This document shows, one piece after another, positions 9,887-63,674 of a stretch of DNA of 64,000 bases. The notes beneath the pieces are model-generated. The model saw only the letters and a program-made list of their open reading frames with translations. It was not told the DNA's origin and did not search any database. The stretch's first letter is position 1. The number at the start of each line of letters is the position of its first letter. Both the position numbers and the translations under genes were made by a program. The stretch is taken from the NCBI GenBank assembly GCA_028715785.1, contig JAQURC010000006.1, positions 21,630 to 85,629 of the forward strand, written 5' to 3'. This DNA is from Candidatus Omnitrophota bacterium. GTDB lineage: Bacteria > Omnitrophota > Gorgyraeia > Gygaellales > Profunditerraquicolaceae.

Positions 9887-10735
9887 ATGATGAACTCATT
9901 TTATTATAAGGGTAAAAAGATCGTGGTAAATACGCTGATCCATCTTTTCCTGATTAGCGTGGCAATAACCTGTCTTTATCCGCTGCTTTGGATGATCGTT
10001 TCAAGCCTTAAAACCCAGGATATGATCTTTAAGGATATTTCTTTGATCCCGCATCAGTTCCGCCTGGAGAATTATGTCCTGGCCTGGAAAGAAGGGGGAT
10101 TCGGCGGAAACTTTTTTAACAGTATTATTTATACCGTTTCGGTAGTCTTCGGGATAGTGATTATTTCTTCCATGGCCGCCTATGCTTTCAGCCGCTTACG
10201 TTTTGCGGGAAGTAAATTTTTGTTCATCATGTTTATGGCGGCAATGATGATCCCCATCCCGGGAAGTTTTGTCGCCCTCTATGTTTTATTAAATAAACTG
10301 CATTTAAGGAATACTCCCATCGGTTATATTCTGTGCATGATTAACGTGGGGCTCTCCACCAGCATATTTTTGCTGAAAACTTTTTTTGATAAGATGCCCA
10401 AGGAGCTGGAAGATGCCGCGCGCATCGACGGCTGCTCGAAAATCGGGATTTGGTGGCATGTTGCCCTGCCGCTGGCCAAGCCGGTGCTGGCGGTGGTGAT
10501 TGTTTTTAACGCTTTAGCCGTATGGAACGAATATATCCTGGCGCTGATTATTTTTGATAACCGCAAGTTCATGCCGCTTCAGGTGGCCTTGCAGTCTTTT
10601 CAGGGCGAGTTCGTCACCAATTATCCGCTGTTAATGGCCGGATTGACGATTACGGCCCTGCCGATTATTTTAGTATATCTTTTTATGCAGAAGTATATTA
10701 TCAAGGGCGTTACCCAGGGAGCGGTAGTAGGATGA
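9887..10735 (+). CDS. Sugar ABC transporter permease (MalG/UgpE-like)
   Basis: EAA loop ELEDAARIDGCSKIGIWWHVALPLAKP. Multi-TM. Confidence 0.85.
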   Translation: MMNSFYYKGKKIVVNTLIHLFLISVAITCLYPLLWMIVSSLKTQDMIFKDISLIPHQFRLENYVLAWKEGGFGGNFFNSIIYTVSVVFGIVIISSMAAYAFSRLRFAGSKFLFIMFMAAMMIPIPGSFVALYVLLNKLHLRNTPIGYILCMINVGLSTSIFLLKTFFDKMPKELEDAARIDGCSKIGIWWHVALPLAKPVLAVVIVFNALAVWNEYILALIIFDNRKFMPLQVALQSFQGEFVTNYPLLMAGLTITALPIILVYLFMQKYIIKGVTQGAVVG

Positions 10736-13119
10736 GTTGTATAAATTTAAAATTTAATGTGTCATTGCGAGCCCGCAGGGCGAAGCAATCTGGGCTTGGA
10801 TTGCTTCGTCGCCTTCGGCTCCTCGCAATGACACTGCCAGTGTTTTTCATTTGCCAATGTACTGACGTGCTGGCTTCCCAGCCTGTTCCTCCCGCTGCTA
10901 CCGCCAGGCCTTCCTCAAGCGAGTTGACCACTAAGGCCTGGATTGCCCACGGCAAAAGGGATATCGAGGCGACGAATAAATACACTCAGGAATGTATCGA
11001 TCTATACAGTTTCCAAGCGGATAAAGAGCAGGCAGCTTTAGCCGCATTGCCTAAGAATAAAAAAGAGATCGAGGCGGTGCAGGTATTAAACGATGTGGCT
11101 ACCTGTTATTTTATTCAGGCTGAGGGCCTGATGCGCCAGCAAAAAATCGATGAGGCCAAGAAAATATTTAAATTGATCATCGATAAATATTCTTACGGAC
11201 AAGCCTGGGACCCGCGCGGCTGGTTCTGGTCGATAAAACTGGCTGCCGAACAAACGATCAAAAAAATCGAAACCGGCTCGATAGAAGTGGAGCAGAAGAA
11301 AAAAGTCAGCCAGCTTGCGACAAAATTGACTTTATTCGATCCGGGTAAAGAAGAAATTGTCGATTACGCAAAATACGGCGAGTTTCAAAACATCGGGACC
11401 AAAGATTATCAGTATGTTGTCGGCGACCAGAAGGGTTTAATCGAGGCAGCCGGAGAAGGCGTCTACCCCAATAACAGCGCAGTCAGGAAAGACCCGATTT
11501 TTAAGCAGGTGATTAAAGACAAGCGCCTGGAGGGGGATGTCTGGGATTTTCTTTATTCCCCGGATCTAGAGGCGGCATTTGTCAAATGGACAACCTCCAG
11601 CGAGCCGCAAGGGGTGAGATTATATGGCACCGGTTTGATTTTGGAGAAGGCCGGTTTAATCACCCAGGCGATCAAATGCTATTATTCGATTGTCGTGCAT
11701 TTCCCCGGCAGCTACGGCTGGACTTACTGGCATACGCCTTGGTATGTGGGCCAGGCCTCGATTGCCAAAATAAATTTTCTTCTCAGGCGCAACCCGCAGT
11801 TAGGTTATAAACTGGAAGGCGCGCAGATCGATATCATCAATGGTTTTGATAATGATATTTCCAATGATGTTGCGGTGGCTAATCCCGGCAAATTCGTGAA
11901 AGTTGATATGGGCCAGGAAGCGGCCAAGGCCAGGCCTACGGCTGAATCCGTGGGGATTAAAAAGAAGGTAGGACGCGGCAAGGTGCGTTTAGTGCAGTAT
12001 AATAATAATGACTGGCAGCTTCTGGTCGAGGACAAGCCTTATATTATTAAAGCGGTTACTTACGCTCCCACTAAGGTTGGCCAGTCTCCGGATGACGGAA
12101 CGCTTAAGAACTGGATGGAGGAGGATTTGAATAAAAACGGCAAAATCGACGGCCCCTATGATGCCTTCGTGGATAAGAACAGGAACAACATCCAGGATGC
12201 CGATGAGCCGTCGGTCGGTGATTTTAAATTGATGCAGGATATGGGTATTAATACCATACGCCTCTACCATCATCCTTTAAAGGTAAACAAAGAATTAATG
12301 CGCGATATGTATAATGCTTATGGGATAGGCGTAATTATGGGGGATTTTTTAGGTAAATATGCCATCGGCTCCGGGGCTGCCTGGAATCCCGGGACCGACT
12401 ATAACAATGAAGCGCAAAAGAAGAAAATGATCGAGTCGGTCAAAGGGATGGTCAATGAATTTAAAGACGAGCCCTACATTTTATTCTGGCTCCTGGGCAA
12501 TGAGAATGTTTACGGTTATGCCTGCAACGCCAATGAATACCCGGAAGCTTATTTTAAATTCGCCAACGAGGTGGCCAGGATAATTAAGTCTATCGACCCA
12601 AATCATCCGGTAGCCATATGCAGCGGCGATATTTTATTTCTGGATAAATTCGGCAAGAGCGCCCCGGATATAGATATCTTCGGTACCAATGCCTACCGCG
12701 GGGATTATGGTTTCGGCGCTTTTTGGAGGCAGGTCAAGGAACAGGCAGGCAAGCCGGCTTTTATCACCGAGTTTGGCTGTCCGGCATACGCTGAAGGGAA
12801 AAGTGTCGATGAAGCCGAGGAGCTGCAGGCGCAATATCATTTGGGTTCCTGGGAGGACATTCAGGATAATATGGCGTTTGGCGGCACAGCAGGTAACGCA
12901 ATAGGCGCAGTGATCTTTGAATGGCTGGATGAATGGTGGAAGGCTTATGAGCCGGGGATCCATGACACCAAGGGTTTGTGGACCGGGCCGTTTCCCGACG
13001 GATATATGCATGAGGAGTGGCTGGGTGTCAGCGGCCAGGGGGATGGAAAACTAAGCCCGTTTTTGCGGCAACTGCGCAAAGCGTATTATATGTATCAGAA
13101 AAAGTGGAAACAGAATTAA
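10732..13119 (+). CDS. Clan GH-A (TIM-barrel) glycoside hydrolase, secreted; family unassigned
   Basis: GINTIRLYHH, WLLGNENVY (acid/base NE), AFITEFGCPAY (nucleophile E), FEWLDEWWK. ATGA overlap with the permease stop. Codons 1-32 lie inside a repeat element, so Met at 10828 is an alternative start. Confidence 0.6.
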   Translation: MSCINLKFNVSLRARRAKQSGLGLLRRLRLLAMTLPVFFICQCTDVLASQPVPPAATARPSSSELTTKAWIAHGKRDIEATNKYTQECIDLYSFQADKEQAALAALPKNKKEIEAVQVLNDVATCYFIQAEGLMRQQKIDEAKKIFKLIIDKYSYGQAWDPRGWFWSIKLAAEQTIKKIETGSIEVEQKKKVSQLATKLTLFDPGKEEIVDYAKYGEFQNIGTKDYQYVVGDQKGLIEAAGEGVYPNNSAVRKDPIFKQVIKDKRLEGDVWDFLYSPDLEAAFVKWTTSSEPQGVRLYGTGLILEKAGLITQAIKCYYSIVVHFPGSYGWTYWHTPWYVGQASIAKINFLLRRNPQLGYKLEGAQIDIINGFDNDISNDVAVANPGKFVKVDMGQEAAKARPTAESVGIKKKVGRGKVRLVQYNNNDWQLLVEDKPYIIKAVTYAPTKVGQSPDDGTLKNWMEEDLNKNGKIDGPYDAFVDKNRNNIQDADEPSVGDFKLMQDMGINTIRLYHHPLKVNKELMRDMYNAYGIGVIMGDFLGKYAIGSGAAWNPGTDYNNEAQKKKMIESVKGMVNEFKDEPYILFWLLGNENVYGYACNANEYPEAYFKFANEVARIIKSIDPNHPVAICSGDILFLDKFGKSAPDIDIFGTNAYRGDYGFGAFWRQVKEQAGKPAFITEFGCPAYAEGKSVDEAEELQAQYHLGSWEDIQDNMAFGGTAGNAIGAVIFEWLDEWWKAYEPGIHDTKGLWTGPFPDGYMHEEWLGVSGQGDGKLSPFLRQLRKAYYMYQKKWKQN
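10759..10834. repeat. Family B ~75-bp nested palindrome (GTGTCATTGCGAG ... CTCGCAATGACAC), copy 1
   Basis: Outer arms GTGTCATTGCGAG/CTCGCAATGACAC and inner arms CGAAGCAATC/GATTGCTTCG. Overlaps the 5' end of the GH ORF. Confidence 0.85.
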
Positions 13120-15551: not shown

Positions 15552-15698
15552 GTGTCATTGCCGGGAGCGCAGCGGTTGCGAGGCGAAGCCGAAGCAAACC
15601 AGCAGCCCCTCGCAACTGGATTCCTTCGCTTCGCTCGGAACAGGCTGCGCAATCCAAAGCGAGATTGCTTCGGGCACTTCGTGCCCTCGCAATGACAC
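15552..15698. repeat. Family B composite (~147 bp) with a nested variant unit
   Basis: Same outer termini (GTGTCATTGCC ... CTCGCAATGACAC). The interior contains a second unit with arms GGTTGCGAGG/CCTCGCAAC plus the GAGATTGCTTCG inner arm. Confidence 0.75.
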
Positions 15699-17267: not shown

Positions 17268-17288
17268 ATCCAGCCTCGCCGAAAACTA

Positions 17289-17342
17289 GGGGACGTTTCT
17301 ATTTTTTCATAGCCTCGGCTTCAAAAAAATAGAAACGTTCCC
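17289..17342. repeat. Family D long hairpin, copy 1 (after the TPR/PKD gene; probable terminator)
   Basis: GGGGACGTTTCTATTTTTT-catagcctcggcttc-AAAAAAATAGAAACGTTCCC, followed by TTTTTC. Confidence 0.8.
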
Positions 17343-17436
17343 TTTTTCTTGAAACTACTTGACTTGAGGCTTCTTTAGTAGTAAAGTAAAAATAAATATT
17401 TCCATTTATTTTTATAAAGCGAGGCAATTCCCTCCC

Positions 17437-23026: not shown

Positions 23027-23034
23027 ATATTTAA

Positions 23035-23091
23035 GGGGACGTGCCAAAAGGGGACACCCTCTTAAAGGGTGTCCCCCAAGAGGACGTCCCC
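23035..23091. repeat. Family C nested hairpin, copy 1 (after nrdJ)
   Basis: GGGGACGT...GGGACACCCT-ctta-AGGGTGTCCC...ACGTCCCC. Outer 8-bp and inner 10-bp stems. Confidence 0.8.
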
Positions 23092-23114: not shown

Positions 23115-24941
23115 ATGGATAATTTTGATGTAATTATTGTCGGTGCCGGCCATGCCGGCATCGAGGCAAGCTTGGCGTGCGCCCGGCTTGGCGCTAAAAC
23201 CTTGATGCTTACCTTGGATATTAATTCCATCGGTAGGATGAGCTGTAATCCGGCTATCGGCGGGGTAGGCAAGGGCCAGCTGGTAAAAGAAATCGATGCT
23301 TTAGGCGGCCAGATGGGCCGGGCTGCCGATGCCTGCGCGATCCAGTTCCGTATCCTTAACTCCTCAAAAGGCGCGGCGGTGCAGTCATCACGGGCCCAGA
23401 TCGATATGCATAAATATAGCCGTTATATGCGGCGTATAGTTTTACATCAGAAAAATTTAACGGTAAAAGAGGCAGAGGCAAAGAAATTAATCGTTAGAGA
23501 TGGCAGGGTTTTAGGAGTAGTTACGGATAAGGGGGAGATTGGCTCTAAATGCGTAATTATTTGCCCGGGGACATTTTTAGACGGTATAATTCATATAGGG
23601 TTAAAACATTTCAGCGCCGGCCGGATTAATGAACGCGCTTCCGTGGGGCTGGCGGATCACCTGAAAAGTTTAGGTTTTAACACCTTGCGTTTTAAAACCG
23701 GGACCTGCCCGCGCCTGAATAAGCATACCATTAATTTTTCCAATCTAATAATCCAGGAAGGGGATTTAATCCCCAAGCCGTTTTCGTTCTCAACAAAAAA
23801 CATAAAGCAAAAACAGGTTTGCTGCCACATTACTTATACCAATAAAAATACGCATGAGTTAATTCGGGCTAACCTCAACCGCTCCCCGCTTTATGCCGGT
23901 ATAATCAAAGCTACGGGCGTCAGATATTGCCCGTCGATCGAGGACAAAATCGTTAAATTCGCGGATAAAGAACGCCATCAGGTATTTTTAGAGCCCGAAG
24001 GTTTAGGAGTGGATGAAATTTATCCTAACGGCATATCCACCAGTTTACCCGAAGATGTGCAGCTTAAGCTTTTGCATTCTATTGCAGGGTTAGAGACAAC
24101 AAAGGTCATCCGTTTTGGTTATGGCATTGAACATACCGTGGTTGACTCCACTCAGCTTTACCCCAGCCTGGAAACAAAATTAATCAAAAATCTTTTTTTT
24201 GCCGGACAGATTAACGGCACAACCGGTTATGAAGAAGCAGCGGCCCAGGGATTGGTCGCCGGAATTAATGCCGCCCTGCGCCTTAAAGATAAAGAAGCTT
24301 TTATTCTGGACCGCTCAAGCAGCTATATCGGCGTGTTAATCGATGATTTAACCACTAAAGGCACGGCTGAACCATACCGCATGTTTACCTCAAGGGTGGA
24401 ATACCGTTTAATTATCCGCGAGGACAACGCGGACTTGCGTTTAGCCAAGGCAGGCTTTGATTTAGGTTTGGTAAAAAAAGATGTTTACCGTAAAATAAAA
24501 AAGAAAGCCCAGGGTATTAAAGAAGGCCTGATTTTTTTAAGAAAAACCCGGATTAATTGCGCTCCTTTTCATAAACCGTTAACTTTGGAAAAATTATTAA
24601 AACGGCCGCAGATAAGCATCAAAGATGTAAATAAGCTGCATAAATTAAAACCGGCGATACCTGAATCCGCTTGGCGGCAGGTTGAAATTGAGGTAAAATA
24701 TGCCGGGTTTATCCAAAGGCAAGAGAAGGATGTGGAACGGTTTAAGCATATAGAGAAAATCAAGCTCCCGGCGAATTTTGATTACGGCAGTTTAGCCGGC
24801 ATATCCCGGGAGATAAGGGAGAAGTTGTCTAAATTTAGGCCGCTTAATTTGGGCCAGGCCTCGCGTATTTCAGGGGTTACGCCTGCGGCAATTTCCCTGC
24901 TTATGGTTTATTTGAGAAAACTAAAAGGCTGTCCAAGTTAG
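23115..24941 (+). CDS. mnmG: tRNA uridine-5-carboxymethylaminomethyl modification enzyme MnmG/GidA
   Basis: FDVIIVGAGHAGIEA FAD motif. Full-length (608 aa) GidA-like sequence, including the C-terminal SGVTPAAISLL. Confidence 0.95.
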   Translation: MDNFDVIIVGAGHAGIEASLACARLGAKTLMLTLDINSIGRMSCNPAIGGVGKGQLVKEIDALGGQMGRAADACAIQFRILNSSKGAAVQSSRAQIDMHKYSRYMRRIVLHQKNLTVKEAEAKKLIVRDGRVLGVVTDKGEIGSKCVIICPGTFLDGIIHIGLKHFSAGRINERASVGLADHLKSLGFNTLRFKTGTCPRLNKHTINFSNLIIQEGDLIPKPFSFSTKNIKQKQVCCHITYTNKNTHELIRANLNRSPLYAGIIKATGVRYCPSIEDKIVKFADKERHQVFLEPEGLGVDEIYPNGISTSLPEDVQLKLLHSIAGLETTKVIRFGYGIEHTVVDSTQLYPSLETKLIKNLFFAGQINGTTGYEEAAAQGLVAGINAALRLKDKEAFILDRSSSYIGVLIDDLTTKGTAEPYRMFTSRVEYRLIIREDNADLRLAKAGFDLGLVKKDVYRKIKKKAQGIKEGLIFLRKTRINCAPFHKPLTLEKLLKRPQISIKDVNKLHKLKPAIPESAWRQVEIEVKYAGFIQRQEKDVERFKHIEKIKLPANFDYGSLAGISREIREKLSKFRPLNLGQASRISGVTPAAISLLMVYLRKLKGCPS

Positions 24942-25014
24942 TGTCATTGCCAGGAGCGTAGCGACGAAGCAATCTAATACGAGATTGCTTCGCCCTTCGG
25001 GCTCGCAATGACAC
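24941..25014. repeat. Family B, copy 3
   Basis: GTGTCATTGCCAGG...CGAAGCAATC-taatacga-GATTGCTTCG...CTCGCAATGACAC. Begins at the mnmG stop and supplies the ATG at 25008. Confidence 0.85.
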
Positions 25015-25025
25015 GCTATTTTAGA

Positions 25026-25703
25026 ATGGATAAAAATAAGAACTATTCAATTTTAAAGAAATTCTGCCTCGATGAAGGTATTGATCTTTTTGGGGTTGCC
25101 GATATAAGCCGGATAAGGGGTGAATTTAAGATCTCTCCCAAAATTTCGCAGAATTTCGACAAGGCTATTTGTTTGGGGGTCATGCTTTCCGCAGCCGTGC
25201 TTTCCGAAATAGATATTGTGCCTACCAAGCTGTATTTCCATCATTATAAAATAGTAAATTCTTTCCTGGACCACATAGCTTTAAGATTATGTAATATAAT
25301 CCAGAAGCGGGGTTTTTTGGCCCTTGCCGTCCCCGCGACCCAAATCATTGATTGGGAAAATAACATTGCGCATCTTTCGCACCGGAAATTAGGGGTTTTG
25401 GCCGGGTTGGGCTGGATTGGCCGGAATAACCTTTTGGTGAACGAGAGATTAGGCAGCCAATTCCGCTTGGTTTCGGTATTAACCAACATGCCGTTAAAGG
25501 CAGATGAGTTAAGTAAAAAAGATTGTGGGCAGTGCAGGCTTTGTGTTAAGATATGCCCGTCAGGGGCGATTCAGGATAATCCGGCGGATTTTGACCATGT
25601 TAAATGTTTTGAAAAACTCAAGAGTTTTCAGAAACAGCGCCAGGTTGAGCAGTTTGTCTGCGGAGTATGCGTGAATGTTTGCAAAGGCAAGGAAAAACAA
25701 TAG
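25026..25703 (+). CDS. QueG-like 4Fe-4S protein (epoxyqueuosine reductase family, short form)
   Basis: HRKLGVLAGLGWIGRNNLLVNERLGSQFRL and CGQCRLCVKICPSGAI. The track start at 25008 lies inside a repeat, so Met at 25026 is preferred. Confidence 0.5.
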   Translation: MDKNKNYSILKKFCLDEGIDLFGVADISRIRGEFKISPKISQNFDKAICLGVMLSAAVLSEIDIVPTKLYFHHYKIVNSFLDHIALRLCNIIQKRGFLALAVPATQIIDWENNIAHLSHRKLGVLAGLGWIGRNNLLVNERLGSQFRLVSVLTNMPLKADELSKKDCGQCRLCVKICPSGAIQDNPADFDHVKCFEKLKSFQKQRQVEQFVCGVCVNVCKGKEKQ

Positions 25704-42075: not shown

Positions 42076-42094
42076 TGCGAAAGTTATTAACAGT

Positions 42095-42122
42095 TGTAGG
42101 GGAGGTTTAAACCTCCCCTACA
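42095..42122. repeat. Family A hairpin, copy 3 (between pstS2 and pstC2)
   Basis: TGTAGGGGAGGTTTAAACCTCCCCTACA is a perfect 28-nt palindrome, preceded by TAACAGTT. Confidence 0.85.
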
Positions 42123-42141
42123 TTAAGGGTATCAGGCGGCT

Positions 42142-45348: not shown

Positions 45349-45394
45349 ACACCCCGCGCTTATAAGGTATTGCGCGGGTATGGCCTTGTGGCCA
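45349..45394 (+). repeat. Family E element + satellite hairpin, copy 1
   Basis: ACACCCCGCGCTTATAAGGTATTGCGCGGGTA, then TGGCC-ttgt-GGCCA. Starts right after the pstB2b stop. The satellite abuts the phoU2 RBS. Confidence 0.8.
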
Positions 45395-45404
45395 AGGAGG
45401 ATAA

Positions 45405-46084: not shown

Positions 46085-46141
46085 GGGGACGTCCTCTTAG
46101 GGGACACCCTTTAAAAAGGGTGTCCCTTTTTGGCACGTCCC
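46085..46141. repeat. Family C nested hairpin, copy 2, inverted orientation (after phoU2; probable terminator)
   Basis: Its reverse complement matches copy 1 with a few substitutions. Followed by TTTTAATTT. Confidence 0.8.
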
Positions 46142-46161
46142 TTTTAATTTAATATATCCCC

Positions 46162-46753: not shown

Positions 46754-47914
46754 ATGCAAATATCAAAAGTTGTAGAAAAAATGCAGCCATCGGGCATCCG
46801 GGCGTTCTTTGATTTAGTGCTCGGGATGAAGGATGTTATATCTTTAGGAGTGGGGGAGCCGGATTTTGTCACCCCCTGGCAGATCCGTGAGGCCGGGATC
46901 TATTCCCTGGAGCAGGGTTTTACCAGTTATACCTCGAATAAAGGGCTGTATAAACTGCGTTTAGGAATCCACCGTTTTTTAAAAAGTGAATACGGCCTGG
47001 ACTATTGCCCGGATGAGGAAATATTAATTACCGTGGGAGTCAGCGAGGGCATTGACCTGCTTATGCGGGCGATCATTAACCCCGGCGATAAGATATTGGT
47101 TCCCCAACCCAGTTATGTTTCATACGGCCCGGTTACCGAGCTTGCCGGCGGCACTCCGGTTTATATCGATACCTCAAAAGATGGATTCAAAATCACGCCC
47201 AGGCTTTTAGAAAAACATATCGATAAGAAGACCAAAGGTATTGTTTTGAATTACCCCACCAATCCTACCGGTGTTTCATACCGCCGCAAGGAGCTGCTGG
47301 ATATAAATAAAGTTTTATTAAAACATAAAATACTTTGTATCAGTGATGAAGTTTATGGCGACCTGACTTATGATTTTGAGCATGTTGCTTTTCCGGCTTT
47401 ACCGGGTGCCAGGAAAAATACGGTTTATTTTAACGGATTTTCCAAGTCATACGCGATGACCGGCTGGCGCGTGGGATTTGCCTGCGGCCCGAAAGAGATC
47501 ATCGCGGCGATGACTAAAATCCATCAATATACGATTATGTGCGTATCGATCACCAGCCAGATGGCCGCGGCAGAGGCATTGGTCAGCGGCAGGAGATCGG
47601 TAGAGCAGATGAAACGCGAATATAACCGCAGGCGGGAGCTGATGACCTTTGAATTAAATTCTTTGGGATTAAAATGCTTCCGGCCGCAGGGAGCTTTTTA
47701 TGTTTTTCCCTGCATTAAAAGCGCAGGTTTGTCGTCTATGGAATTCTCGCGCCAATTATTGAAAGAGGAGAAGGTGGCGGTGGTCCCGGGAACTGCTTTT
47801 GGTCCCTGCGCGGAAGGTTATATCAGGATTTCTTACGCTTCCAGCATGGATAATTTAAAGGAAGCTTTGAATAGAATAAAAAGATTTTTAAATAGAAGGA
47901 CACCCCGCGCTTAA
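46754..47914 (+). CDS. Class I/II pyridoxal-phosphate aminotransferase (aspartate/alanine type)
   Basis: NGFSKSYAMTGWRVG (PLP lysine), NYPTNPTG; 386 aa. Confidence 0.85.
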   Translation: MQISKVVEKMQPSGIRAFFDLVLGMKDVISLGVGEPDFVTPWQIREAGIYSLEQGFTSYTSNKGLYKLRLGIHRFLKSEYGLDYCPDEEILITVGVSEGIDLLMRAIINPGDKILVPQPSYVSYGPVTELAGGTPVYIDTSKDGFKITPRLLEKHIDKKTKGIVLNYPTNPTGVSYRRKELLDINKVLLKHKILCISDEVYGDLTYDFEHVAFPALPGARKNTVYFNGFSKSYAMTGWRVGFACGPKEIIAAMTKIHQYTIMCVSITSQMAAAEALVSGRRSVEQMKREYNRRRELMTFELNSLGLKCFRPQGAFYVFPCIKSAGLSSMEFSRQLLKEEKVAVVPGTAFGPCAEGYIRISYASSMDNLKEALNRIKRFLNRRTPRA

Positions 47915-47945
47915 AGGTATTGCGCGGGTGTTGTCTTCGTAGACA
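47900..47945 (+). repeat. Family E element + satellite hairpin, copy 2
   Basis: ACACCCCGCGCTTAAAGGTATTGCGCGGGTGT, then TGTCT-tcgt-AGACA. Encodes the last four codons and the stop (TPRA*) of the aminotransferase. Confidence 0.8.
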
Positions 47946-51175: not shown

Positions 51176-51195
51176 GTCAGGACTAAGGCGTCCTT

Positions 51196-51241
51196 TGCCC
51201 ACCGGGGCACATCCGCGCAATACCTTATAAGCGCGGGGTGT
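51196..51241 (-). repeat. Family E element + satellite hairpin, copy 3 (inverted)
   Basis: TGCCC-accg-GGGCA, then ACATCCGCGCAATACCTTATAAGCGCGGGGTGT. This is the reverse complement of the copy 1 core. Confidence 0.8.
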
Positions 51242-51273: not shown

Positions 51274-51319
51274 CCACCACCTGGTGGACATCCGCGCAAT
51301 ACCTATTAGCGCGGGGTGT
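51274..51319 (-). repeat. Family E element + satellite hairpin, copy 4 (inverted)
   Basis: CCACC-acct-GGTGG, then ACATCCGCGCAATACCTATTAGCGCGGGGTGT. Ends 16 nt before the sigma-factor start. Confidence 0.8.
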
Positions 51320-54106: not shown

Positions 54107-54113
54107 GAAACAT

Positions 54114-54168
54114 GGGGACGGTTCTATTTTTCCATAGCTAACCGTGTTCGAAAAATAGAACCGTCCCC
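54114..54168. repeat. Family D long hairpin, copy 2 (between amtB and glnB)
   Basis: GGGGACGGTTCTATTTTT-ccatagctaaccgtgttcg-AAAAATAGAACCGTCCCC is a perfect 18-bp stem. The loop starts CATAGC, as in copy 1. Confidence 0.85.
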
Positions 54169-54195
54169 AGGATTTTAAAAACTCGGGAGGTATAA

Positions 54196-54727: not shown

Positions 54728-56923
54728 ATGAGCATAAGACAGAAAGTTCTATTTAAAATTAAAAGCACCGAATTAGAAAAAATAGATTTTCCTAAAAAAG
54801 TTTCCTCTTATTTCGGCGTGAATACCTTTAGCACGGAAACTATGCAAAAGCATATTTCTAAAGGTACTTTTGAGGCATTCAAGACCTGGATGTCTGAAGG
54901 TAAAACCATAACTTTAGCGCAGGCAAACGAAATTGCCGATGCGATGAAGGAGTGGGCAATTGCCAAAGGCGCTACCTATTATACGCACTGGTTCCAGCCG
55001 ATGACCGGGCTTACCGCGGAAAAGCACGACAGCTTTATTTCGATAACCGCTCCGGGAAAAGTAATCGAAAAATTCTCGGGGAATAAATTAATCCAGGGGG
55101 AGCCGGATGCATCCAGCTTTCCTTCAGGAGGAATCCGGGCGACCTTTGAAGCCAGAGGTTATACTGCCTGGGATCCATCAAGTGCGGCGTTTATTATCGA
55201 AAGTACGCTTGGCAAAACTTTGTGTATCCCCACAATATTTATTTCTTACCACGGTGAAGCTTTAGACAAGAAGCTGCCGCTTTTGCGTTCGGATGAAGCG
55301 TTAAATAACGCCGCTTTAGGCCTGATTAAACTTTTCGGCCATAAAGATGTAAAAAAGATATTTTCTACCTGCGGTCCGGAGCAGGAATATTTCCTGATCG
55401 ATAAGAACTATTACAATTTACGCCAGGATTTGATCATGACCGGCCGGACCCTGGTTGGAGCGCCGTCTCCTAAAGGCCAGCAGTTAGAGGACCAGTATTT
55501 CGGCACGATTAAAGAGCGGGTGGTTAATTTTATGTTCGAGGTCGCTGAAGAGGCTTACAAGCTGGGCATACCGGTAATGACCCGGCACAATGAAGTTGCC
55601 CCGCATCAGTATGAATTTGCTCCGATATTCGAAGAATCAAATATCGCCGCCGATCACAATCAACTGCTTATGGAATTGATGAAAAAGATTGCCTTAAGGC
55701 ATGGGATGGTCTGCCTTTTGCATGAGAAACCTTTTGCCGGAATCAACGGCAGCGGAAAACACCTGAACTGGTCGCTGGCCGATGATAAAGGCAATAACCT
55801 GCTTAATCCCGGGCAGACTCCGGAGGATAACCTGCAGTTTTTGGCAGTTTTAGCCGCGGTATTAAGAGCGGTCTATCTGCACGCTGATCTCCTGCGTGCT
55901 TCGGTTGCCCTGGCTGGCAATGAACATCGCTTAGGCGCTAACGAGGCCCCTCCGGCCATTATCAGCGTATTTTTAGGCGAACAATTGACTTCGATCCTGG
56001 ACATGATTGAAAAAGGGGCTAAATCCAAAGTTTCTAAAAGCGACATTATCGATTTAGGGATAGGCCGCCTGCCCAAATTTAACAAGGATACAACCGATAG
56101 GAACCGCACCTCGCCTTTTGCCTTTACCGGGGCCAAATTTGAATTTCGCGCCGTCGGTTCATCGCAGAATATCTCCACACCCATCGCGGTAATCAATACC
56201 ATTATTGCTGAAAGCCTTGATTATGTTGCTGAGCAGATTAAAAAGGCCAAGTCCACGGGCAAGGATTTTAATTCCGCGGTATTGCTGGTAATCTCTAAGA
56301 TTGTTAAAGAGACCAAGGATATCCGCTTTGAAGGAAATAACTACGCGCAAGAGTGGATTAAAGAAGCTAAGAAACGGGGACTGCCGAACATCGCTTCGAC
56401 TTACCAGTCCCTGGAGGCTTTAACCAAAAAAGAGAATATCGCCCTTTTTGAGAAATACAAAGTCTTTTCTAAAGAAGAGCTGATCGCCCGTTACCATATC
56501 TGGATCCATATGTATAACCTGACCCTGGAAATCGAGGCCAATACCTTAAACGAAATGGTTAATGCTTCGGTAGTGCCGGCAGGTTATGAATATGAAAAAT
56601 TATTGGCGGCAAACCTGGACGCGTTAGTCAAATTACATAAAGACGCCAGCCTGAAAGTTGATAGCGGAGCGTTAAAAGACAAAAAGGATCATTTGGCTGA
56701 GATAGTTGCCAAGATTTATTATGTGCGCAGGAATGTCGGTGAAATGGTTAAGTTGCTTGAGGATGCCGGTAAACTAAACAACGAAAAACGCGCCGCGCTT
56801 TATTTTGATGAGCTTAAGCCTTTGATGGAGCATATTCGAAGGCACGTTGATCAGCTGGAATGCGTAGTTTCCGATGATGCCTGGGATCTGCCTAAGTATC
56901 GGGAAATGCTGTTCATAAAATAA
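54728..56923 (+). CDS. glnN: Glutamine synthetase type III
   Basis: 731 aa. GSIII-type N-terminus (FGVNTF...MKEWAIAKGATYYTHWFQPMTG) and catalytic core (NGSGKHLNWS, RTSPFAFTGAKFEFRAVGSS). Confidence 0.9.
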   Translation: MSIRQKVLFKIKSTELEKIDFPKKVSSYFGVNTFSTETMQKHISKGTFEAFKTWMSEGKTITLAQANEIADAMKEWAIAKGATYYTHWFQPMTGLTAEKHDSFISITAPGKVIEKFSGNKLIQGEPDASSFPSGGIRATFEARGYTAWDPSSAAFIIESTLGKTLCIPTIFISYHGEALDKKLPLLRSDEALNNAALGLIKLFGHKDVKKIFSTCGPEQEYFLIDKNYYNLRQDLIMTGRTLVGAPSPKGQQLEDQYFGTIKERVVNFMFEVAEEAYKLGIPVMTRHNEVAPHQYEFAPIFEESNIAADHNQLLMELMKKIALRHGMVCLLHEKPFAGINGSGKHLNWSLADDKGNNLLNPGQTPEDNLQFLAVLAAVLRAVYLHADLLRASVALAGNEHRLGANEAPPAIISVFLGEQLTSILDMIEKGAKSKVSKSDIIDLGIGRLPKFNKDTTDRNRTSPFAFTGAKFEFRAVGSSQNISTPIAVINTIIAESLDYVAEQIKKAKSTGKDFNSAVLLVISKIVKETKDIRFEGNNYAQEWIKEAKKRGLPNIASTYQSLEALTKKENIALFEKYKVFSKEELIARYHIWIHMYNLTLEIEANTLNEMVNASVVPAGYEYEKLLAANLDALVKLHKDASLKVDSGALKDKKDHLAEIVAKIYYVRRNVGEMVKLLEDAGKLNNEKRAALYFDELKPLMEHIRRHVDQLECVVSDDAWDLPKYREMLFIK

Positions 56924-56927
56924 AAAG

Positions 56928-56958
56928 GGTTACCAAAACAGCCCTTTTCTTACTTGTA
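56928..56958 (+). promoter_or_regulatory. N-motif copy C: GGTTACCA-N12-TCTTACTTGTA
   Basis: Begins 5 nt after the glnN stop. Followed by TATATA and leader terminator C. Confidence 0.6.
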
Positions 56959-57000
56959 TATATAGACACGCTGTTGTGTTTATCATAACGAATAGAACGT

Positions 57001-57052
57001 AGACGTTCATGCTGGCTAAAACTGTTTTTTGCCAAAATGAACGTCTTTTTTT
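57001..57052 (+). terminator. Leader terminator/attenuator C
   Basis: AGACGTTCAT...ATGAACGTCT (10-bp perfect outer stem, inner TGGC/GCCA) plus TTTTTTT. A competing small hairpin GAACG-taga-CGTTC (56995-57008) sequesters the 5' arm. Confidence 0.65.
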
Positions 57053-57084
57053 GTCAACAGCCATGCCTAAAGTTTGGGCATAAT

Positions 57085-57468
57085 ATGATTACTATAGTTA
57101 TTACCGAAGATGAAACAAAGGCAAAAGAGGCTTTGGCTAAGATGTTAAAGCAGGAGGGGTACACTTTATCCCCGGATACAAGCCGGGAAAATGTAATCCG
57201 CGTCGTGAAAAAGGATTGTATAAGGGACCTGGCTTTTATCAAAGACAGGGTAGTGGAATTAGAAAATTCATTGTTTATTGAAAAAAAGGGAGTATTGTAT
57301 AAATCCGTTTTGGAGGCAATCGAGAAACCTTTGCTTGAACAGACGCTAGAGCGTTGTGAAGGCAACCAGCTTAAAGCCGCCCGCATCCTGGGGATTAACC
57401 GCAACACCATGCGGGCCAAAATTAACAAATTAGGTATTGATGTTTCAAGGTGGAAAATAAATTTATGA
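57085..57468 (+). CDS. Small Fis/NtrC-type HTH protein (mini-NtrC: receiver-like N-terminal stub + HTH_8, no AAA+ domain)
   Basis: C-terminus KPLLEQTLERCEGNQLKAARILGINRNTMRAKINKLGI. N-terminus IVITEDETKAKEALAKMLKQEGYTL resembles receiver beta1-alpha1-beta2 only. ATGA coupling to gltB. The track start 57037 lies in the terminator. Confidence 0.65.
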   Translation: MITIVITEDETKAKEALAKMLKQEGYTLSPDTSRENVIRVVKKDCIRDLAFIKDRVVELENSLFIEKKGVLYKSVLEAIEKPLLEQTLERCEGNQLKAARILGINRNTMRAKINKLGIDVSRWKINL

Positions 57469-60400
57469 AACAGGCGCGTTTACCAAAAAAGCAGGGTCTA
57501 TACGACCCGCGGTTTGAGCATGATTCCTGCGGAGTAGGGTTTGTTTGCAATATCAAAGGCAAGAAAAGCCATGATATTGTTAAGCAGGGGCTGGAGGTTT
57601 TACGGCGCTTAAGCCACCGCGGAGCAACCGGCGCGGACCCTAAAACCGGTGACGGCGCGGGCCTGCTTATCCAGTTTCCTCATGAATTTTTTGTATCGAT
57701 ATGCGCGAAAGAAAAGATCAATCTGCCTAAAGAAGGTGAATATGCCTCAGGGTTAGTCTTCCTGCCGCAGGATGCCAAAGAGCGCAGGTTTTGTAAAGAG
57801 GCCTTTGAGAAAATAATTAATAGCGAAGGGCAGTTATTTTTGGGCTGGCGTAATGTACCGGTAGATAATTCTGATATCGGCCAGAGCGCCAAAGACACCC
57901 AGCCGGTGATCGAGCAGATATTTATTGGCGCTGCTGCGGTGTCATTGCGAGCCCCGAAGGGGCGAAGCAATCCAAAAGAGATTGCTTCGTCGCCTGCGGC
58001 TCCTGGCAATGACAATTTAGATAACCTGGCTTTTGAAAGAAAGCTTTATGTTATTCGTAGGCAGGTTGAAAATATTATCCGCGCCTCCAAAATAAAACAA
58101 AAAACATCTTTCTATATTCCCAGCTTGTCCGGCCGCACATTTATCTATAAGGGCCTGCTTATGCCGCATCAGGTAGAAAACTTCTTTTTGGATTTAAGTT
58201 CCCAGGAAATTAAAAGCGCTTTAGCCATGGTCCATTCGCGTTACTCTACCAATACTTTTCCCACCTGGGACCTCTCTCAACCGTTTAGATTTATCGCCCA
58301 TAACGGAGAGATCAATACTTTAAGGGGCAATATTAATTGGATGCGTGCCCGCCAAAACTTCTTAAAGAGCCAATTATTCGGCCAAGACTTAAAGAAAATA
58401 TTTCCGGTAATTGTTCCGGGCGGCAGTGATTCGGCGGCCATTGATAATGTTTTTGAGCTCCTGACCTTGTCCGGCAGAAGCCTGACGCAGGCAATCTCGA
58501 TGCTCATACCGGCTGCTTGGGAACAGAATAACCTGCTTACCCAGGAGGTAAGGGCTTTTCATAAATACCACACCTGTCTTATTGAGCCCTGGGACGGCCC
58601 GGCAGCCATGGTTTTTACTGACGGGATATCTATCGGAGCAGTGCTTGACCGTAACGGATTGCGGCCCTGCCGTTATATTGTTACCAAAGATGATTTTGTG
58701 GTGATGGCCTCCGAAGTAGGAGTTTTAGATATCGATCCTGCCAAGATCCTTCATTCAGGACGGCTTGAGCCGGGCAAGGCATTTTTTATCGATACCAAAG
58801 CCGGGTGCATAATTGAAGACAGCCGGATAAAAAAAGAGCTCAGCGAAGATAAGCCATACGATCAATGGGTTAAGAAGAATATACTGGAGTTAGACAGTTT
58901 AAAAGACAGAGGACAGAAGACAGAAGATAGAGGACAGAGGAGAGAAACAAATATTTTGACCCAATTAAAGGTTTTTGGTTATACCCGCGAAGATCTGAAA
59001 ATGATTATTAAGCCGATGGCTGAAAATGCCCAGGAACCGGTGGGCTCGATGGGCAATGATACCCCGCACGCCGTACTTTCAACCAGGCCGCAACTCTTGT
59101 TTTCCTATTTTAAACAATTATTCGCCCAGGTAACTAACCCTCCGATTGATCCTATCCGTGAGGAGCTGGTGATGAGCCTGGCCAGTTATTTGGGCCCGGA
59201 AAAGAATATTTTAAGCGATGGAGAGGACCACTGCCATAAATTATTAGTAAAACAGCCGATTTTAAACGACGCGGAATTAAAGAAAATCAGAAAAATTAGA
59301 ACAAGCGGATTTAGGACTAAAACAATCTCCATAAATTTTAAGATTTCCGAAAAGGACGCCTTCAAAAGGACATTGGAGAGAATACGTAAAGAGGCAGAGC
59401 AGGCGATATCCGCCAAAGGCGGATCCCTGCCTGTCCGGCAGGCAGGCGCCTCCGGCGGAAAAAAAGGCTATACTTTTATTATTTTAAGCGACCGCGGAGT
59501 GAATAAAGATTATGCCGCTATTCCCAGCCTCCTGGCGGTTTCAGCGCTGCACCATTATCTGGTGCGCCGTTCTTTGCGCACGCAGATCAGCATTATTTTA
59601 GAGAGCGCCGAGCCCCGCGAAGTAAATCATTTTGCCCTGCTTTTTGCCTACGGAGTTGATTGTGTTAATCCGTATCTTGTATTTGGCGCCTTGGAAAAGA
59701 TGGCTAAAGAGAAAGAATTGAACCTTGGCGCCGAGAAGGCAAAGCATAATTACATAAAAGCCATCGACAAAGGGATACTCAAAGTCCTTTCCAAGATGGG
59801 CATCTCGACTTTACAGAGTTACCGCGGGGCCCAGATTTTTGAAGCGGTGGGATTAAATAAAAGCGTAATTGATGAATATTTCACCGGCACAGTTTCCCGG
59901 ATTAACGGCGCATCTTTAGGGGTAATTGTTAAAGAAACTATTCTGCGCCATAAGGAGGCTTTTGCCGTAAGGAGCCAAGGCGAAAATCATCTGGCTTCCG
60001 GCGGCCTTTATCAGTGGAGGCGCGACGGAGAATTCCATCTCTGGAACCCGGACACGATTGCCGCTTTGCAGGATGCCGCGCGCAATAATGATGCCAAAAA
60101 ATATCAGGAGTTTGCCAGCTTAATTAATGATCAGTCAAAAAATCCGACTACTCTAAGAAGCCTGCTAAAATTTAAAATACAAAAATCTATCCCGCTAAGT
60201 GAAGTTGAGCCGGTTGAAGAAATTGTAAAAAGGTTTGCTACCGGGGCGATGAGTTTTGGCTCAATCAGCCGCGCCACGCATGAAACGATTGCTATCGCCA
60301 TGAATAGGTTAGGTGGAAGGTCTAATACTGGAGAGGGCGGCGAAGACCCCGCGCGTTTTGTTCCGTTGCCTGGCGGAGATTCTGCCAGAAGCGCGATAAA

Positions 60401-62132
60401 GCAGGTTGCCTCCGGGCGTTTCGGCGTAACCACGAATTATTTAGTTAATGCCGATGAAATCCAGATAAAAATGGCCCAAGGCGCAAAACCCGGCGAGGGC
60501 GGCCAGCTTCCCGGGCATAAGGTAAGCGCGATAATCGCCAAGACCCGCTATACTACCCCGGGAGTTACTTTGATTTCCCCGCCTCCGCACCATGATATAT
60601 ATTCAATCGAAGATTTAGCGCAGCTTATCTTTGACCTAAAAAACGCAAATCCCAAAGCGCGGATTAGCGTAAAATTAGTTTCTGAAATCGGCGTAGGCAC
60701 GGTAGCCGCGGGTGTGGCTAAAGGGCATGCCGATATGATCCTTATTTCCGGCCAGGACGGAGGCACCGGAGCTTCTCCTTTGAGTTCAATTAAACACGCC
60801 GGACTTCCCTGGGAGCTGGGGCTTTCCGAAACGCACCAGACTTTAGTCTTAAATGATTTAAGGAGCAGGGTGCGCCTGCAGAGTGACGGCCAGATGCGCA
60901 CCGGACGGGATGTGGCGATTGCCGCAATGCTTGGCGCCGAAGAGTTCGGTTTCTGCACCGCGGTATTAATCGTGTTGGGATGCGTGATGCTGCGTCATTG
61001 TAATTTAAATAATTGTTCGGTAGGGATTGCTACCCAAGATGAGATCCTGGAAAAAAGATTTACCGGCCGGCCGGAATATATTATTAATTATTTTACCTTT
61101 ATCGCCGATGAACTGCGCCAGATCATGAGCTCTTTAGGCATAAAAAAATTAGAGGATATGGTCGGCAGGGTGGATCTGCTGGAATTGAATCAGGAGATTT
61201 TACCCTGGAAGGCAAAAGAAATCGATTTTTCTAAAATCCTTTATAAACCTCAGGTGCCGGAGTCAGTAATTACGCATTATTGTAAAAAACAGGACCATGG
61301 TATTGATAAGATTCTGGATTTAAAGTTGATTGAATTATCCGAGCCGGCATTGGCAGAAGCTAAAAACGTGGAAATAAATCAAAAGATCGAAAACGTAAAC
61401 CGCGCCACCGGGGCAATGTTAAGCGGGGAGGTTTGCCGGCGGTTTGGCGAAAGCGGGCTGCCCGAAGATACGATTAAATGTAATTTTAAAGGGGTGGCCG
61501 GCCAAAGCTTCGGGGCTTTTTTGGCCAAAGGGATAACTTTTGCCCTGGAAGGCATGGCTAATGATTATGTGGGCAAAGGGATATCCGGAGGTAAAATTAT
61601 AATTTATCCGGATAAAAAAGTTGATTACAAACCGGATGAAAATATTATTATCGGCAACACTACTTTCTACGGGGCAATCAACGGAGAGGCATATATACGG
61701 GGGGTTGCCGGAGAGAGGTTCTGTATCCGGAATTCCGGGTTAAATGCGGTTATTGAGGGTTTGGGAGACCACGGTTGTGAATATATGACCGGAGGAAGGG
61801 TGGTTGTCCTGGGAAAATGCGGCAGGAATTTCGGGGCAGGGATGTCCGGGGGGATTGCCTATTGTCTGGATGAAAGAAGAGATTTTAAGAAAAAATGTAA
61901 TTTGGAGATGGTGGCTTTGGAGAAAATAAATGCCCAAGACGCAGAGACGATCAAAAACCTGCTGTTTAACCACCGCAAATACACGCAAAGCTTTAAAGCC
62001 AAAGAGATTCTCGATGATTTTCATAAGTATGCCAATCTTTTTGTCAAAGTCATGCCTTTGGAATACAAACGTATATTGGAAGAAAAAAAGGCTGTTGGGA
62101 AGGCTGACCTGGGAGAATATACTGATGGGTGA
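57465..62132 (+). CDS. gltB: Glutamate synthase large subunit
   Basis: Ntn Cys (HDSCGVGFV), GEINTL, the FMN/Fe-S central and synthase domains (GEGGEDP, KMAQGAKPGEGGQLPG, SGQDGGTGASP) and the C-terminal GXGXG domain. Contains three in-frame repeat-like insertions. Confidence 0.95.
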   Translation: MKQARLPKKQGLYDPRFEHDSCGVGFVCNIKGKKSHDIVKQGLEVLRRLSHRGATGADPKTGDGAGLLIQFPHEFFVSICAKEKINLPKEGEYASGLVFLPQDAKERRFCKEAFEKIINSEGQLFLGWRNVPVDNSDIGQSAKDTQPVIEQIFIGAAAVSLRAPKGRSNPKEIASSPAAPGNDNLDNLAFERKLYVIRRQVENIIRASKIKQKTSFYIPSLSGRTFIYKGLLMPHQVENFFLDLSSQEIKSALAMVHSRYSTNTFPTWDLSQPFRFIAHNGEINTLRGNINWMRARQNFLKSQLFGQDLKKIFPVIVPGGSDSAAIDNVFELLTLSGRSLTQAISMLIPAAWEQNNLLTQEVRAFHKYHTCLIEPWDGPAAMVFTDGISIGAVLDRNGLRPCRYIVTKDDFVVMASEVGVLDIDPAKILHSGRLEPGKAFFIDTKAGCIIEDSRIKKELSEDKPYDQWVKKNILELDSLKDRGQKTEDRGQRRETNILTQLKVFGYTREDLKMIIKPMAENAQEPVGSMGNDTPHAVLSTRPQLLFSYFKQLFAQVTNPPIDPIREELVMSLASYLGPEKNILSDGEDHCHKLLVKQPILNDAELKKIRKIRTSGFRTKTISINFKISEKDAFKRTLERIRKEAEQAISAKGGSLPVRQAGASGGKKGYTFIILSDRGVNKDYAAIPSLLAVSALHHYLVRRSLRTQISIILESAEPREVNHFALLFAYGVDCVNPYLVFGALEKMAKEKELNLGAEKAKHNYIKAIDKGILKVLSKMGISTLQSYRGAQIFEAVGLNKSVIDEYFTGTVSRINGASLGVIVKETILRHKEAFAVRSQGENHLASGGLYQWRRDGEFHLWNPDTIAALQDAARNNDAKKYQEFASLINDQSKNPTTLRSLLKFKIQKSIPLSEVEPVEEIVKRFATGAMSFGSISRATHETIAIAMNRLGGRSNTGEGGEDPARFVPLPGGDSARSAIKQVASGRFGVTTNYLVNADEIQIKMAQGAKPGEGGQLPGHKVSAIIAKTRYTTPGVTLISPPPHHDIYSIEDLAQLIFDLKNANPKARISVKLVSEIGVGTVAAGVAKGHADMILISGQDGGTGASPLSSIKHAGLPWELGLSETHQTLVLNDLRSRVRLQSDGQMRTGRDVAIAAMLGAEEFGFCTAVLIVLGCVMLRHCNLNNCSVGIATQDEILEKRFTGRPEYIINYFTFIADELRQIMSSLGIKKLEDMVGRVDLLELNQEILPWKAKEIDFSKILYKPQVPESVITHYCKKQDHGIDKILDLKLIELSEPALAEAKNVEINQKIENVNRATGAMLSGEVCRRFGESGLPEDTIKCNFKGVAGQSFGAFLAKGITFALEGMANDYVGKGISGGKIIIYPDKKVDYKPDENIIIGNTTFYGAINGEAYIRGVAGERFCIRNSGLNAVIEGLGDHGCEYMTGGRVVVLGKCGRNFGAGMSGGIAYCLDERRDFKKKCNLEMVALEKINAQDAETIKNLLFNHRKYTQSFKAKEILDDFHKYANLFVKVMPLEYKRILEEKKAVGKADLGEYTDG
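57939..58014. repeat. Family B, copy 4, in frame inside gltB
   Basis: GTGTCATTGCGAGCCCCGAAGGGGCGAAGCAATCCAAAAGAGATTGCTTCGTCGCCTGCGGCTCCTGGCAATGACA. Translated as VSLRAPKGRSNPKEIASSPAAPGND. Confidence 0.85.
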
Positions 62133-63567: not shown

Positions 63568-63674
63568 AATTCGTAACAGTTCAACTCTTGGAAGCGCTCC
63601 GACAAGATTGTAGGGCAGGTTTAAACCTGCCCTACGACGATCTCCTTCTGAAAGCTGAACTGTTACTAAAATTC
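63565..63674. mobile_element. 94-bp MITE-like element carrying a family A hairpin, flanked by an 8-bp direct repeat
   Basis: Terminal inverted repeats GTAACAGTTCA (63573-63583) and TGAACTGTTAC (63656-63666). Central GTAGGGCAGGTTTAAACCTGCCCTAC (63610-63635). Direct repeats TAAAATTC at 63565-63572 and 63667-63674; the left one contains the gltD stop codon. Confidence 0.65.

Follow-up and report, generated by a model that had tools for sequence, protein, structure and literature searches.

In-frame insertions of palindromic and tandem repeat DNA in the glutamate synthase gene of a Candidatus Omnitrophota bacterium

The 64,000-nucleotide stretch considered here (hereafter the window) is taken from contig JAQURC010000006.1, positions 21,630 to 85,629, of a Candidatus Omnitrophota bacterium, and carries gltB, the gene for the large subunit of glutamate synthase, at 57450..62132 on the forward strand. 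The gene was recognised from the list of open reading frames (ORFs), from Pfam and from its match to the structure 7mfm_G. The ORF is intact, with 1560 aa from a GTG start or 1555 aa from the ATG at 57465, the latter being the length given in the original prediction, which was made from the sequence alone. Four Pfam domains (GATase_2, Glu_syn_central, Glu_synthase and GXGXG; E 1e-84 to 1e-175) and the motif HDSCGVGF are found in the product, which aligns end to end with solved structures (top match B. subtilis 7mfm_G, E = 0) and has the parts that define GltB: an N-terminal nucleophile (Ntn) amidotransferase with N-terminal Cys, a central domain, a flavin mononucleotide (FMN)/Glu_synthase domain and a GXGXG beta-helix. 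The neighbouring genes encode a type III glutamine synthetase (GS-III) on one side and the small subunit on the other, the latter probably being the downstream ORF that ends at 63567, judging from its position and sequence. The nearest GltB homologues all belong to Candidatus Omnitrophota (74–78% identity). No record was found for the window's own GltB or GS-III, and a metagenome scan returned nothing nearer than 81% identity over the best segment. Loci from other genomes and metagenomes are given L numbers below, and database proteins P numbers. One groundwater contig, L124, is colinear with positions 56245-61109 of the window at ~81% nucleotide identity, and its GltB is 84% identical in amino acids. 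Codon positions 1, 2 and 3 of gltB are 90, 89 and 59% identical to those of L124, which indicates that gltB is under purifying selection.

Three in-frame inserts had been predicted within this gene, and all three prove to be real and lineage-specific. Insert 1 lies at 57942..58013 on the forward strand, where codon alignments with empty-site orthologues give a net gain of 72 nt (24 codons, SLRAPKGRSNPKEIASSPAAPGND); the palindrome itself is wider, at 57940-58014. The sequence and the translation VSLRAPKGRSNPKEIASSPAAPGND first reported for 57939-58014 are as stated. Insert 2, at 58905..58946 on the forward strand, is an array of 14 codons (DRGQKTEDRGQRRE), found with Tandem Repeats Finder in the linker that joins the amidotransferase domain to the central domain. 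Insert 3 lies in the central domain, at a helix-strand junction just before GYTFIILSDRG. The palindromes described for it at 59411-59446 are present, but the insert is longer than the 36 nt first assigned, extending over 59409..59459 on the forward strand (51 nt, 17 codons, SAKGGSLPVRQAGASGG). Peptides that span the insert junctions include IFIGAAAVSLR and GNDNLDNLAFER. In the C-terminal half of the protein (residues 751-1560), alignment to solved GltB showed no other insertion of at least 5 aa.

The lineage specificity of the three segments can be read from alignments with GltB of unrelated phyla, where gaps lie opposite the inserts in B. subtilis, Azospirillum and Synechocystis. In B. subtilis and Azospirillum the gap is 24 aa at insert 1 and 17–18 aa at insert 3, and opposite insert 2 B. 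subtilis is short by ~6 aa. Neither insert 1 nor insert 3 was seen in any of the 60 closest database homologues. Insert 1 is shared by the window's gene and L124, where it occupies the identical codon (KSLRAPKGRSNLVEIASSPTAPRND) and is followed by the same derived 3′ flank, NLDN, and it is missing from ~30 other metagenome orthologues as well as from the database homologues and from every solved GltB structure. Insert 3 occurs in the window's gene only among the ~90 orthologues examined, and inserts 2 and 3 are both missing from L124. An array of the same kind as insert 2, GRCRGAA repeated six times, occupies the insert-2 site of L003, while L001, L002 and L124 have no array there. Inserts 1 and 2 are therefore each confirmed by an independent assembly (L124 and L003, respectively). 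The window's gene and L124 are sisters in a neighbour-joining tree built on 750 gap-free columns (73% bootstrap); a first identity matrix of 521 columns had not placed the two together, and was set aside in favour of the bootstrapped tree.

Insert 1 is an inverted dimer of units of a repeat called family B, in which each unit has a TGTC tag, a stem of ATTGC and GCAAT, and an inner GC hairpin. From the tag inward, a unit reads (C/T)GTC, ATTGC, GAG, a variable GC hairpin, CGAA, GCAAT and CC, and the full element consists of two inverted units with their tags facing outward. The insert folds with a minimum free energy (MFE) of -43.4 kcal/mol (z = -6.85), and none of 200 shuffled sequences was equally stable. 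Family B is present in the window as three dimers and one single unit. The gltB copy is the sole intragenic one, in keeping with the earlier description of the family as otherwise intergenic. The other two dimers lie at 10759..10833 on the forward strand, oriented as the gltB copy (MFE -44.4, z -6.68), and at 24941..25015 on the reverse strand, thus in the opposite orientation, as identified by sequence match and folding. The single unit (GAGATTGCTTCGGGCACTTCGTGCCCTCGCAATGACA) was found by sequence match at 15660..15697 on the forward strand, with a degenerate partner upstream, and a unit of Omnitrophica GWA2_41_15 (L014) matches it at 92%. All copies are within 88–92% of one another; the window copies read TGTC-ATTGCGAG, with tails of CCA (the gltB copy), CTG and CTA. 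A scan of the window with Rfam gave no family at gathering score, with only chance hairpin-like matches far below threshold for insert 1. A literature search by sequence returned unrelated primers only, a protein-database search with a 48-aa concatenate of family-B peptides found nothing, and a plasmid collection yielded seven weak, uninformative matches.

Beyond the window, the pattern GATTGCTTCG-N8-22-CGCAATGAC, which is the family-B unit read on the opposite strand, was scanned in 185,579 species genomes. At least 120 loci matched, with 148 units among the matches listed; by our own estimate, chance alone would yield ~65 matches in 596 Gb. The matches listed come from Bradyrhizobium and many other Alphaproteobacteria, from Gammaproteobacteria, from Bacteroidota (Pedobacter, Chryseobacterium, Hymenobacter, Mucilaginibacter), from Chloroflexota, Patescibacteria, Cyanobacteria, Ignavibacteriota, Planctomycetota, Armatimonadota and Atribacterota, and from Sporomusa, Helicobacter rodentium, a Ca. 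Tisiphia endosymbiont (L087), a Rickettsiales metagenome-assembled genome (L050) and Omnitrophota. A central-stem partner accompanies 77 of the 148 listed units and a complete dimer 42 of them; 78 have a CGTC tag, 60 a TGTC tag and 10 another, and after GCAAT the tail is CCAG in 47, the rest having CTC, CTG or CCC. The dimer partners, the CGTC and TGTC tags (138 of 148) and the CCAG tails argue that the matches are genuine elements. The core (GTCATTGCGAG...CGAAGCAATC / GATTGCTTCG...CTCGCAATGAC) is kept across more than 12 phyla (loci L004-L123), among them cultured members of Bradyrhizobium, Pedobacter, Chryseobacterium and Sporomusa and cultured Helicobacter rodentium.

Family-B units also lie in frame within genes of other phyla. 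The five hosts are GMP synthase GuaA (L056:4073-5743), FGAM synthase PurL (L096:2352-6242), an ATP-dependent DNA ligase (L100:1184-3091), the rRNA dimethyltransferase KsgA (L108:867-1808) and a PD-(D/E)XK nuclease (L048:1656-4484), in genomes labelled Gammaproteobacteria, Bacteroidales, Curtissbacteria, Patescibacteria and Eubacteriales. Pfam domains flank these inserts on both sides, except in the nuclease, where a domain lies only downstream. Element lengths show no bias to multiples of three (27 of 120), and about half of the frames are open; selection is therefore the filter, and in a gene under purifying selection it spares only inserts that keep the frame, hold no stop codon and fall in permissive loops.

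The sites that received the inserts are flexible in a structural model. An AlphaFold (AF2) model of GltB residues 1-895, computed with 82 aligned sequences, has a mean predicted local distance difference test score (pLDDT) of 85 and the fold of solved GltB (template modelling score, TM, 0.83 to 7mfm_G). Values below 50 are confined to residues 1-4, 160-183, 652-664 and 853-856, the second of which is exactly insert 1 while the third lies inside insert 3; insert 2 falls in a block with a pLDDT of ~59 (residues 481-490). All three inserts are modelled as coil between confidently predicted secondary-structure elements. This bears out the proposal that they occupy loops, and their disorder, together with the tolerance of these sites to indels, suggests that the loops are at the surface.

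The same loops of gltB have received independent insertions in other Omnitrophota, almost all of them hairpins. These include two perfect palindromes in L143 and inserts in L154, L129, L130 and L133, and the linker carries a family-B dimer in L166 (P0016) and a family-B single unit in L149. The gltB genes of L130 and L132 share 95.6% of their DNA sequence; L130 alone has a 30-nt double GC hairpin in frame (CCCGCCGTAGGCGGG + TGCGCCTCCGGCGCA), at ~3390-3430, within the loop that immediately precedes the insert-3 site. Between these close relatives the hairpin is a presence/absence polymorphism, gained or lost recently. At ~3390-3470 of L129 lies a 25-aa in-frame insert (IDTFDSSRQRRDSLSINPERAKRVE) made by a different long palindrome (MFE -38 kcal/mol), which indicates that this loop is used by further repeat families.

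Taken together, these observations are best explained if a working glutamate synthase gene took up repeat DNA at three places, all of them in flexible loops, where the additions are tolerated, a reading to which we give a probability of about 0.8. Such inserts would persist when their length is a multiple of three, when they hold no in-frame stop and when they fall where the fold tolerates extra residues, and the added peptides would then be neutral. Insert 1 would most likely go back to one insertion in the common ancestor of the window's lineage and L124, inherited since, and would be translated as a disordered 24-residue loop of the amidotransferase domain, between the strand at 148-155 and the helix at 187-207. 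Insert 3 would represent a second, rarer family of nested GC palindromes, as a 51-nt copy that arrived in the window's lineage only; at insert 2, the linker between the domains would have grown when a 7-nt unit expanded by strand slippage. The original prediction, which spoke of tolerated insertions of selfish or palindromic DNA, is thus supported, with the qualification that insert 2 is a heptanucleotide microsatellite in a hypervariable linker and no palindrome, and that its net gain is only 6 aa.

Several observations count against this explanation. If insert 1 were a purely neutral passenger, it would be expected to diverge as fast as synonymous sites do (~41%); its stems differ at only 2 of 58 positions between the window's gene and L124, and it is the most conserved 24-codon window at synonymous sites of the 598 aligned codons. 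By itself, a selfish or neutral origin leaves this stem conservation unexplained. Neither a transposase nor a REP-associated tyrosine transposase (RAYT; REP, repetitive extragenic palindrome) was found near the elements among 10 bracketed ORFs, and no target-site duplication is visible, so that transposition is only a candidate mechanism. Insert 3 rests on a single assembly, and insert 2 is common to L003 yet missing from the closer relative L124, a history that requires one loss or two gains.

The conservation of insert 1 deserves closer attention. Of its 72 bases, six differ between the window's gene and L124: the 7-nt central loop accounts for four of these, and a hairpin loop and the outer stem for one each. 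Third codon positions are identical at 23 of 24 sites within the insert and at 337 of 574 elsewhere (Fisher p = 1.4e-4), and the only 24-codon windows that reach 23/24 are those on insert 1. Counted by pairing, the differences fall on 2/58 paired and 4/14 unpaired positions (p = 0.011), and the chance of two or fewer changes in 58 sites at the third-position divergence of the gene is ~3e-11. The 24 codons contain no purely synonymous change and four amino-acid replacements, so any constraint would act on the nucleotide sequence rather than on the peptide. The inner hairpins match between the two orthologues although paralogous copies vary in them, which speaks against gene conversion or homogenisation from other copies. 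It is possible that this pattern reflects selection on the hairpin, as mRNA or as DNA, or an insertion that postdates the separation of the two species; the latter is disfavoured, since both genomes have the element at the same site with the same flank and its loop has diverged.

One alternative is thus that insert 1, and perhaps insert 3, are kept for a function of the nucleic-acid hairpin, with the peptide as a by-product. Such a function might be mRNA stabilisation, ribosome pausing after a folding unit or a REP function at the DNA level, and it is compatible with an origin by insertion, though not with an insert that is merely tolerated. Besides the near-invariant stems, the high stability of the insert 1 hairpin (-43 kcal/mol) speaks in its favour. 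Against this, the conservation comes from one pair of genomes and six differences, the family copies are so alike that a recent master or an insertion after the split could mimic constraint, and the other ~90 orthologues work without insert 1. The occurrence of REPs within unrelated genes has also been argued to speak against functional constraint (PMC3733652). We regard a hairpin function as possible, though on the unlikely side. More speculatively, the paired positions of an intragenic REP dimer could be held by selection at the nucleic-acid level, with the CGTC-type family kept by a conserved trans-acting partner and the gltB loops serving as preferred targets, a combination that we consider doubtful.

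It has also to be asked whether the window's gene and L124 acquired insert 1 separately, either through independent recent insertions at a favoured target or through recent lateral exchange there, in which case the low divergence would simply mean youth. Identity between them is 92% in the element as against 80% in the gene, the four codons immediately before the insert are wholly different (AAAV and VNLK), the same loops have been struck repeatedly in other lineages, and the sister grouping has a bootstrap of only 73%. However, the identical codon and the derived NLDN flank are shared, the inner hairpins are the same in the two orthologues and unlike those of all other window copies, and 4 of the 7 positions of the central loop differ, roughly as many as neutral change would give. 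In addition, third-position identity in the upstream flank is 0.60, equal to background, so there is no recombination tract. Separate acquisition is accordingly improbable, and a single ancestral insertion is preferred for insert 1.

Insert 3 is a nested GC-rich palindrome with 75% G+C, against 44% for the window, and folds with an MFE of -35.0 kcal/mol (z = -4.58). There is no second copy in the 64-kb window, and the small hairpins of orthologues mostly have sequences of their own, with perfect stems, as in L143 (GTTGGGGTGGATCGTGATCCACCCCAAC). These features would fit an origin in place, in which insert 3 and the other small GC hairpins were made by template switching or strand slippage and are not mobile. 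In the gltB of L002, however, an in-frame insert ~20 codons upstream, thus at a different site, shares 43 of 53 nt with insert 3 without gaps (81%; score 56, with a maximum of 25 in 2000 shuffles). Modules of insert 3 (GCGCCTCCGGCG and CTGCC-GTCCGGCAGG) recur in inserts of L130, L133 and L154, and its base composition is foreign to its surroundings. The L002 relative, the shared modules and the high G+C content suggest that insert 3 belongs to a second, rarer family of small GC palindromes, and formation in place is a rather poor prospect.

Insert 2 consists of six imperfect units, GACAGAG GACAGAA GACAGAA GATAGAG GACAGAG GAGAGAA, and is the top tandem repeat of the window in Tandem Repeats Finder (period 7, 5.9 copies, 58905-58945, score 54, 85% matches). 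Folding against shuffled sequences gave no secondary structure. The earlier account of a purine-rich imperfect tandem repeat is accurate, except that the array replaces part of a variable linker, which differs in length and sequence in every orthologue, and the net insertion is only 18 nt (6 aa) relative to L001, L002 and L124. Insert 2 is a microsatellite of the slipped-strand type, placed where the amidotransferase domain is linked to the central domain. A 7-nt array would keep the frame only if it totals a multiple of 21 nt, and the six units make 42 nt. A heptanucleotide is not a multiple of three and the array lies inside the ORF, which brings to mind a phase-variation switch in which gain or loss of units toggles gltB; this is very unlikely, as the units are imperfect, the window's gene and L003 are both at exactly six units despite many substitutions, and gltB is a housekeeping gene. 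In L003, a second heptanucleotide array, AACAGAA repeated three times, lies at positions 1-30, in the insert-1 loop, where the contig starts, and heptamer arrays seem recurrent in this lineage.

That the segments are artefacts of assembly or binning, or that gltB is a decaying pseudogene, is scarcely credible: although the source organism is uncultured, repeats are classic sites of misassembly and several homologous contigs or ORFs end near the insert sites, inserts 1 and 2 recur in independent assemblies, all three are stop-free exact multiples of three, the 1560-aa ORF has all its domains and is under strong purifying selection, and the two ORF ends examined are in-frame TAG codons and not repeats.

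Some features of the orthologues and of the window may be noted beside these arguments. Two gltB orthologues carry an in-frame TAG, at L167:2855-2865 and L168 (the same protein, P0026, on four contigs) and at L165:2310-2320. One of the TAG codons falls exactly at the insert-3 position (..AESAI*EKYSFIILSDRG) and the other replaces the conserved Gln of LVFLPQD; these could be split genes, pseudogenes or cases of stop-codon recoding. Among partial GltB proteins in the databases, the ends and starts favour the insert-1 and insert-3 loops. Nine of 35 ends lie within one 19-residue stretch, at residues 636-654 of the window's protein (P0044, P0050, P0088, P0017, P0068, P0045, P0046, P0026 and P0040), and three proteins (P0003, P0061 and P0065) start at residues 184-193. 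The idea that contig and ORF ends at the insert sites are assembly breaks induced by repeats was dropped, both cases opened being in-frame TAG codons, and it is not used as evidence here.

The right end of the family-B element (GCAATGAC) contributes an ATG at 10826-10828 and at 25008-25010. The latter is the first ATG of the ORF at 25008..25703, while the former is in frame in the ORF at 10732..13119, the product of which, read from there, resembles a signal peptide (MTLPVFFICQC...). Family-B repeats may in this way supply or shift start codons. At least four more families of palindromic repeats occur in the window, all intergenic, for example TGTAGGGGAGGTTTAAACCTCCCCTACA, ACACCCCGCGCTTATAAGGTATTGCGCGGGTGT and GGGGACG-type hairpins. 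They lie at 939-975, 9819-9857, 42093-42131 and 63609-63645; at 45349-45395, 47900-47931, 51195-51241 and 51288-51319; at 23029-23091 and 46085-46148; and at 17288-17343 and 54108-54174. The genome is unusually rich in palindromic elements.

The findings have some practical and conceptual consequences. Protein-coding palindromes, once thought peculiar to Rickettsia, are also found in Omnitrophota and in the candidate phyla radiation, and certain loops of one large enzyme are struck by them again and again. In metagenome bins, inserts of this kind make gene calls too long or break them up; they also show where GltB could accept a tag or an engineered segment, and their presence or absence can serve to track strains. 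If the conserved stems of insert 1 are confirmed in more genomes, they would be relevant to the choice between parasitism and a nucleic-acid function for REP-type repeats.

Several known systems invite comparison. The short tandemly repeated heptanucleotides (STRR) of cyanobacteria are mostly intergenic; insert 2 is likewise a 7-nt tandem array, but it has a different sequence, is translated and imperfect, and is fixed at six units. Family B resembles the GTAG REPs and the REPIN-RAYT system in being made of short GC-rich hairpins, dispersed between genes as single units and inverted doublets. It nevertheless stands outside that system, having no GTAG tag and no flanking RAYT: the 10 ORFs bracketed by element pairs, within which the search was made, were ordinary genes and one fragment of a Mutator-family transposase, with no Y1/RAYT. 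In addition, GTAG REPs are mostly species-specific, whereas the family-B core is conserved across phyla.

The Rickettsia palindromic elements (RPE) insert in frame into housekeeping genes, are translated and are thought to sit where the structure tolerates them; RPE-1 elements are 100–150 bp long, encode a conserved peptide, are limited to Rickettsia and were described as unique to the genus (Ogata et al., 2000, 2002, as summarised in PMC10969869). Insert 1 is similarly palindromic and in frame in a housekeeping gene, but it measures 72 nt, its host is a free-living candidate phylum (Omnitrophota), and its peptide is conserved only as the DNA imposes. It behaves as an RPE does without being RPE-1.

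The closest known relatives are the CGTC-tagged REPs, which occur in five phyla, mostly as inverted dimers, and have no dedicated transposase (Di Nocera, De Gregorio & Rocco, 2013, BMC Genomics 14:522; PMC3733652). They are defined by a CGTC end (variants TGTC and CCTC), a stem of 8–9 bp starting with A-T, a loop of 4–5 nt and a tail with the consensus CCA, and two of their families have been equated with RPE-6 and RPE-4 of Rickettsia, so that some RPE are themselves CGTC REPs (PMC3733652). REPs inside genes are on record, where dimers encode 20–30 aa, and an example from P. spadix, SFRGEAVEPGIQRAGLDSRLRGND (PMC3733652), matches SLRAPKGRSNPKEIASSPAAPGND in length (24 aa), frame and ends (S-x-R...G-N-D). 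Family B shares with these REPs the CGTC or TGTC tag, a stem starting A, T, inverted dimers with outward tags (tandem clusters being found only in L009 and L113), a mostly intergenic and sometimes in-frame genic location and a distribution over several phyla. A short CC(A) tail is seen in part of its units, and no dedicated transposase was found among the 10 bracketed ORFs. Family B differs in the stem: although this begins with AT, the CGTC REPs, CGTC-1 to CGTC-4, have a simple stem of 8–9 bp with the first two pairs A-T and a loop of 4–5 nt, whereas the conserved blocks of family B are 8–22 nt apart and form a 5-bp stem (ATTGC/GCAAT), beyond which come an internal loop and an inner GC hairpin that varies. 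The range of family B is also far wider than the five phyla on record, taking in Omnitrophota, Chloroflexota, Patescibacteria, Cyanobacteria and others. On account of the short stem, internal loop and inner hairpin, family B appears to be a new family or a variant within the CGTC/TGTC-tagged REP superfamily, apart from CGTC-1 to CGTC-4. The phenomenon as such is already known from intragenic REPs and from Rickettsia palindromic elements (PMC3733652; PMC10969869); what is new here is the family-level CGTC-type variant, its presence in Omnitrophota and several further phyla, the repeated hits on the same GltB loops, and a hint of nucleotide-level constraint on the intragenic copy.

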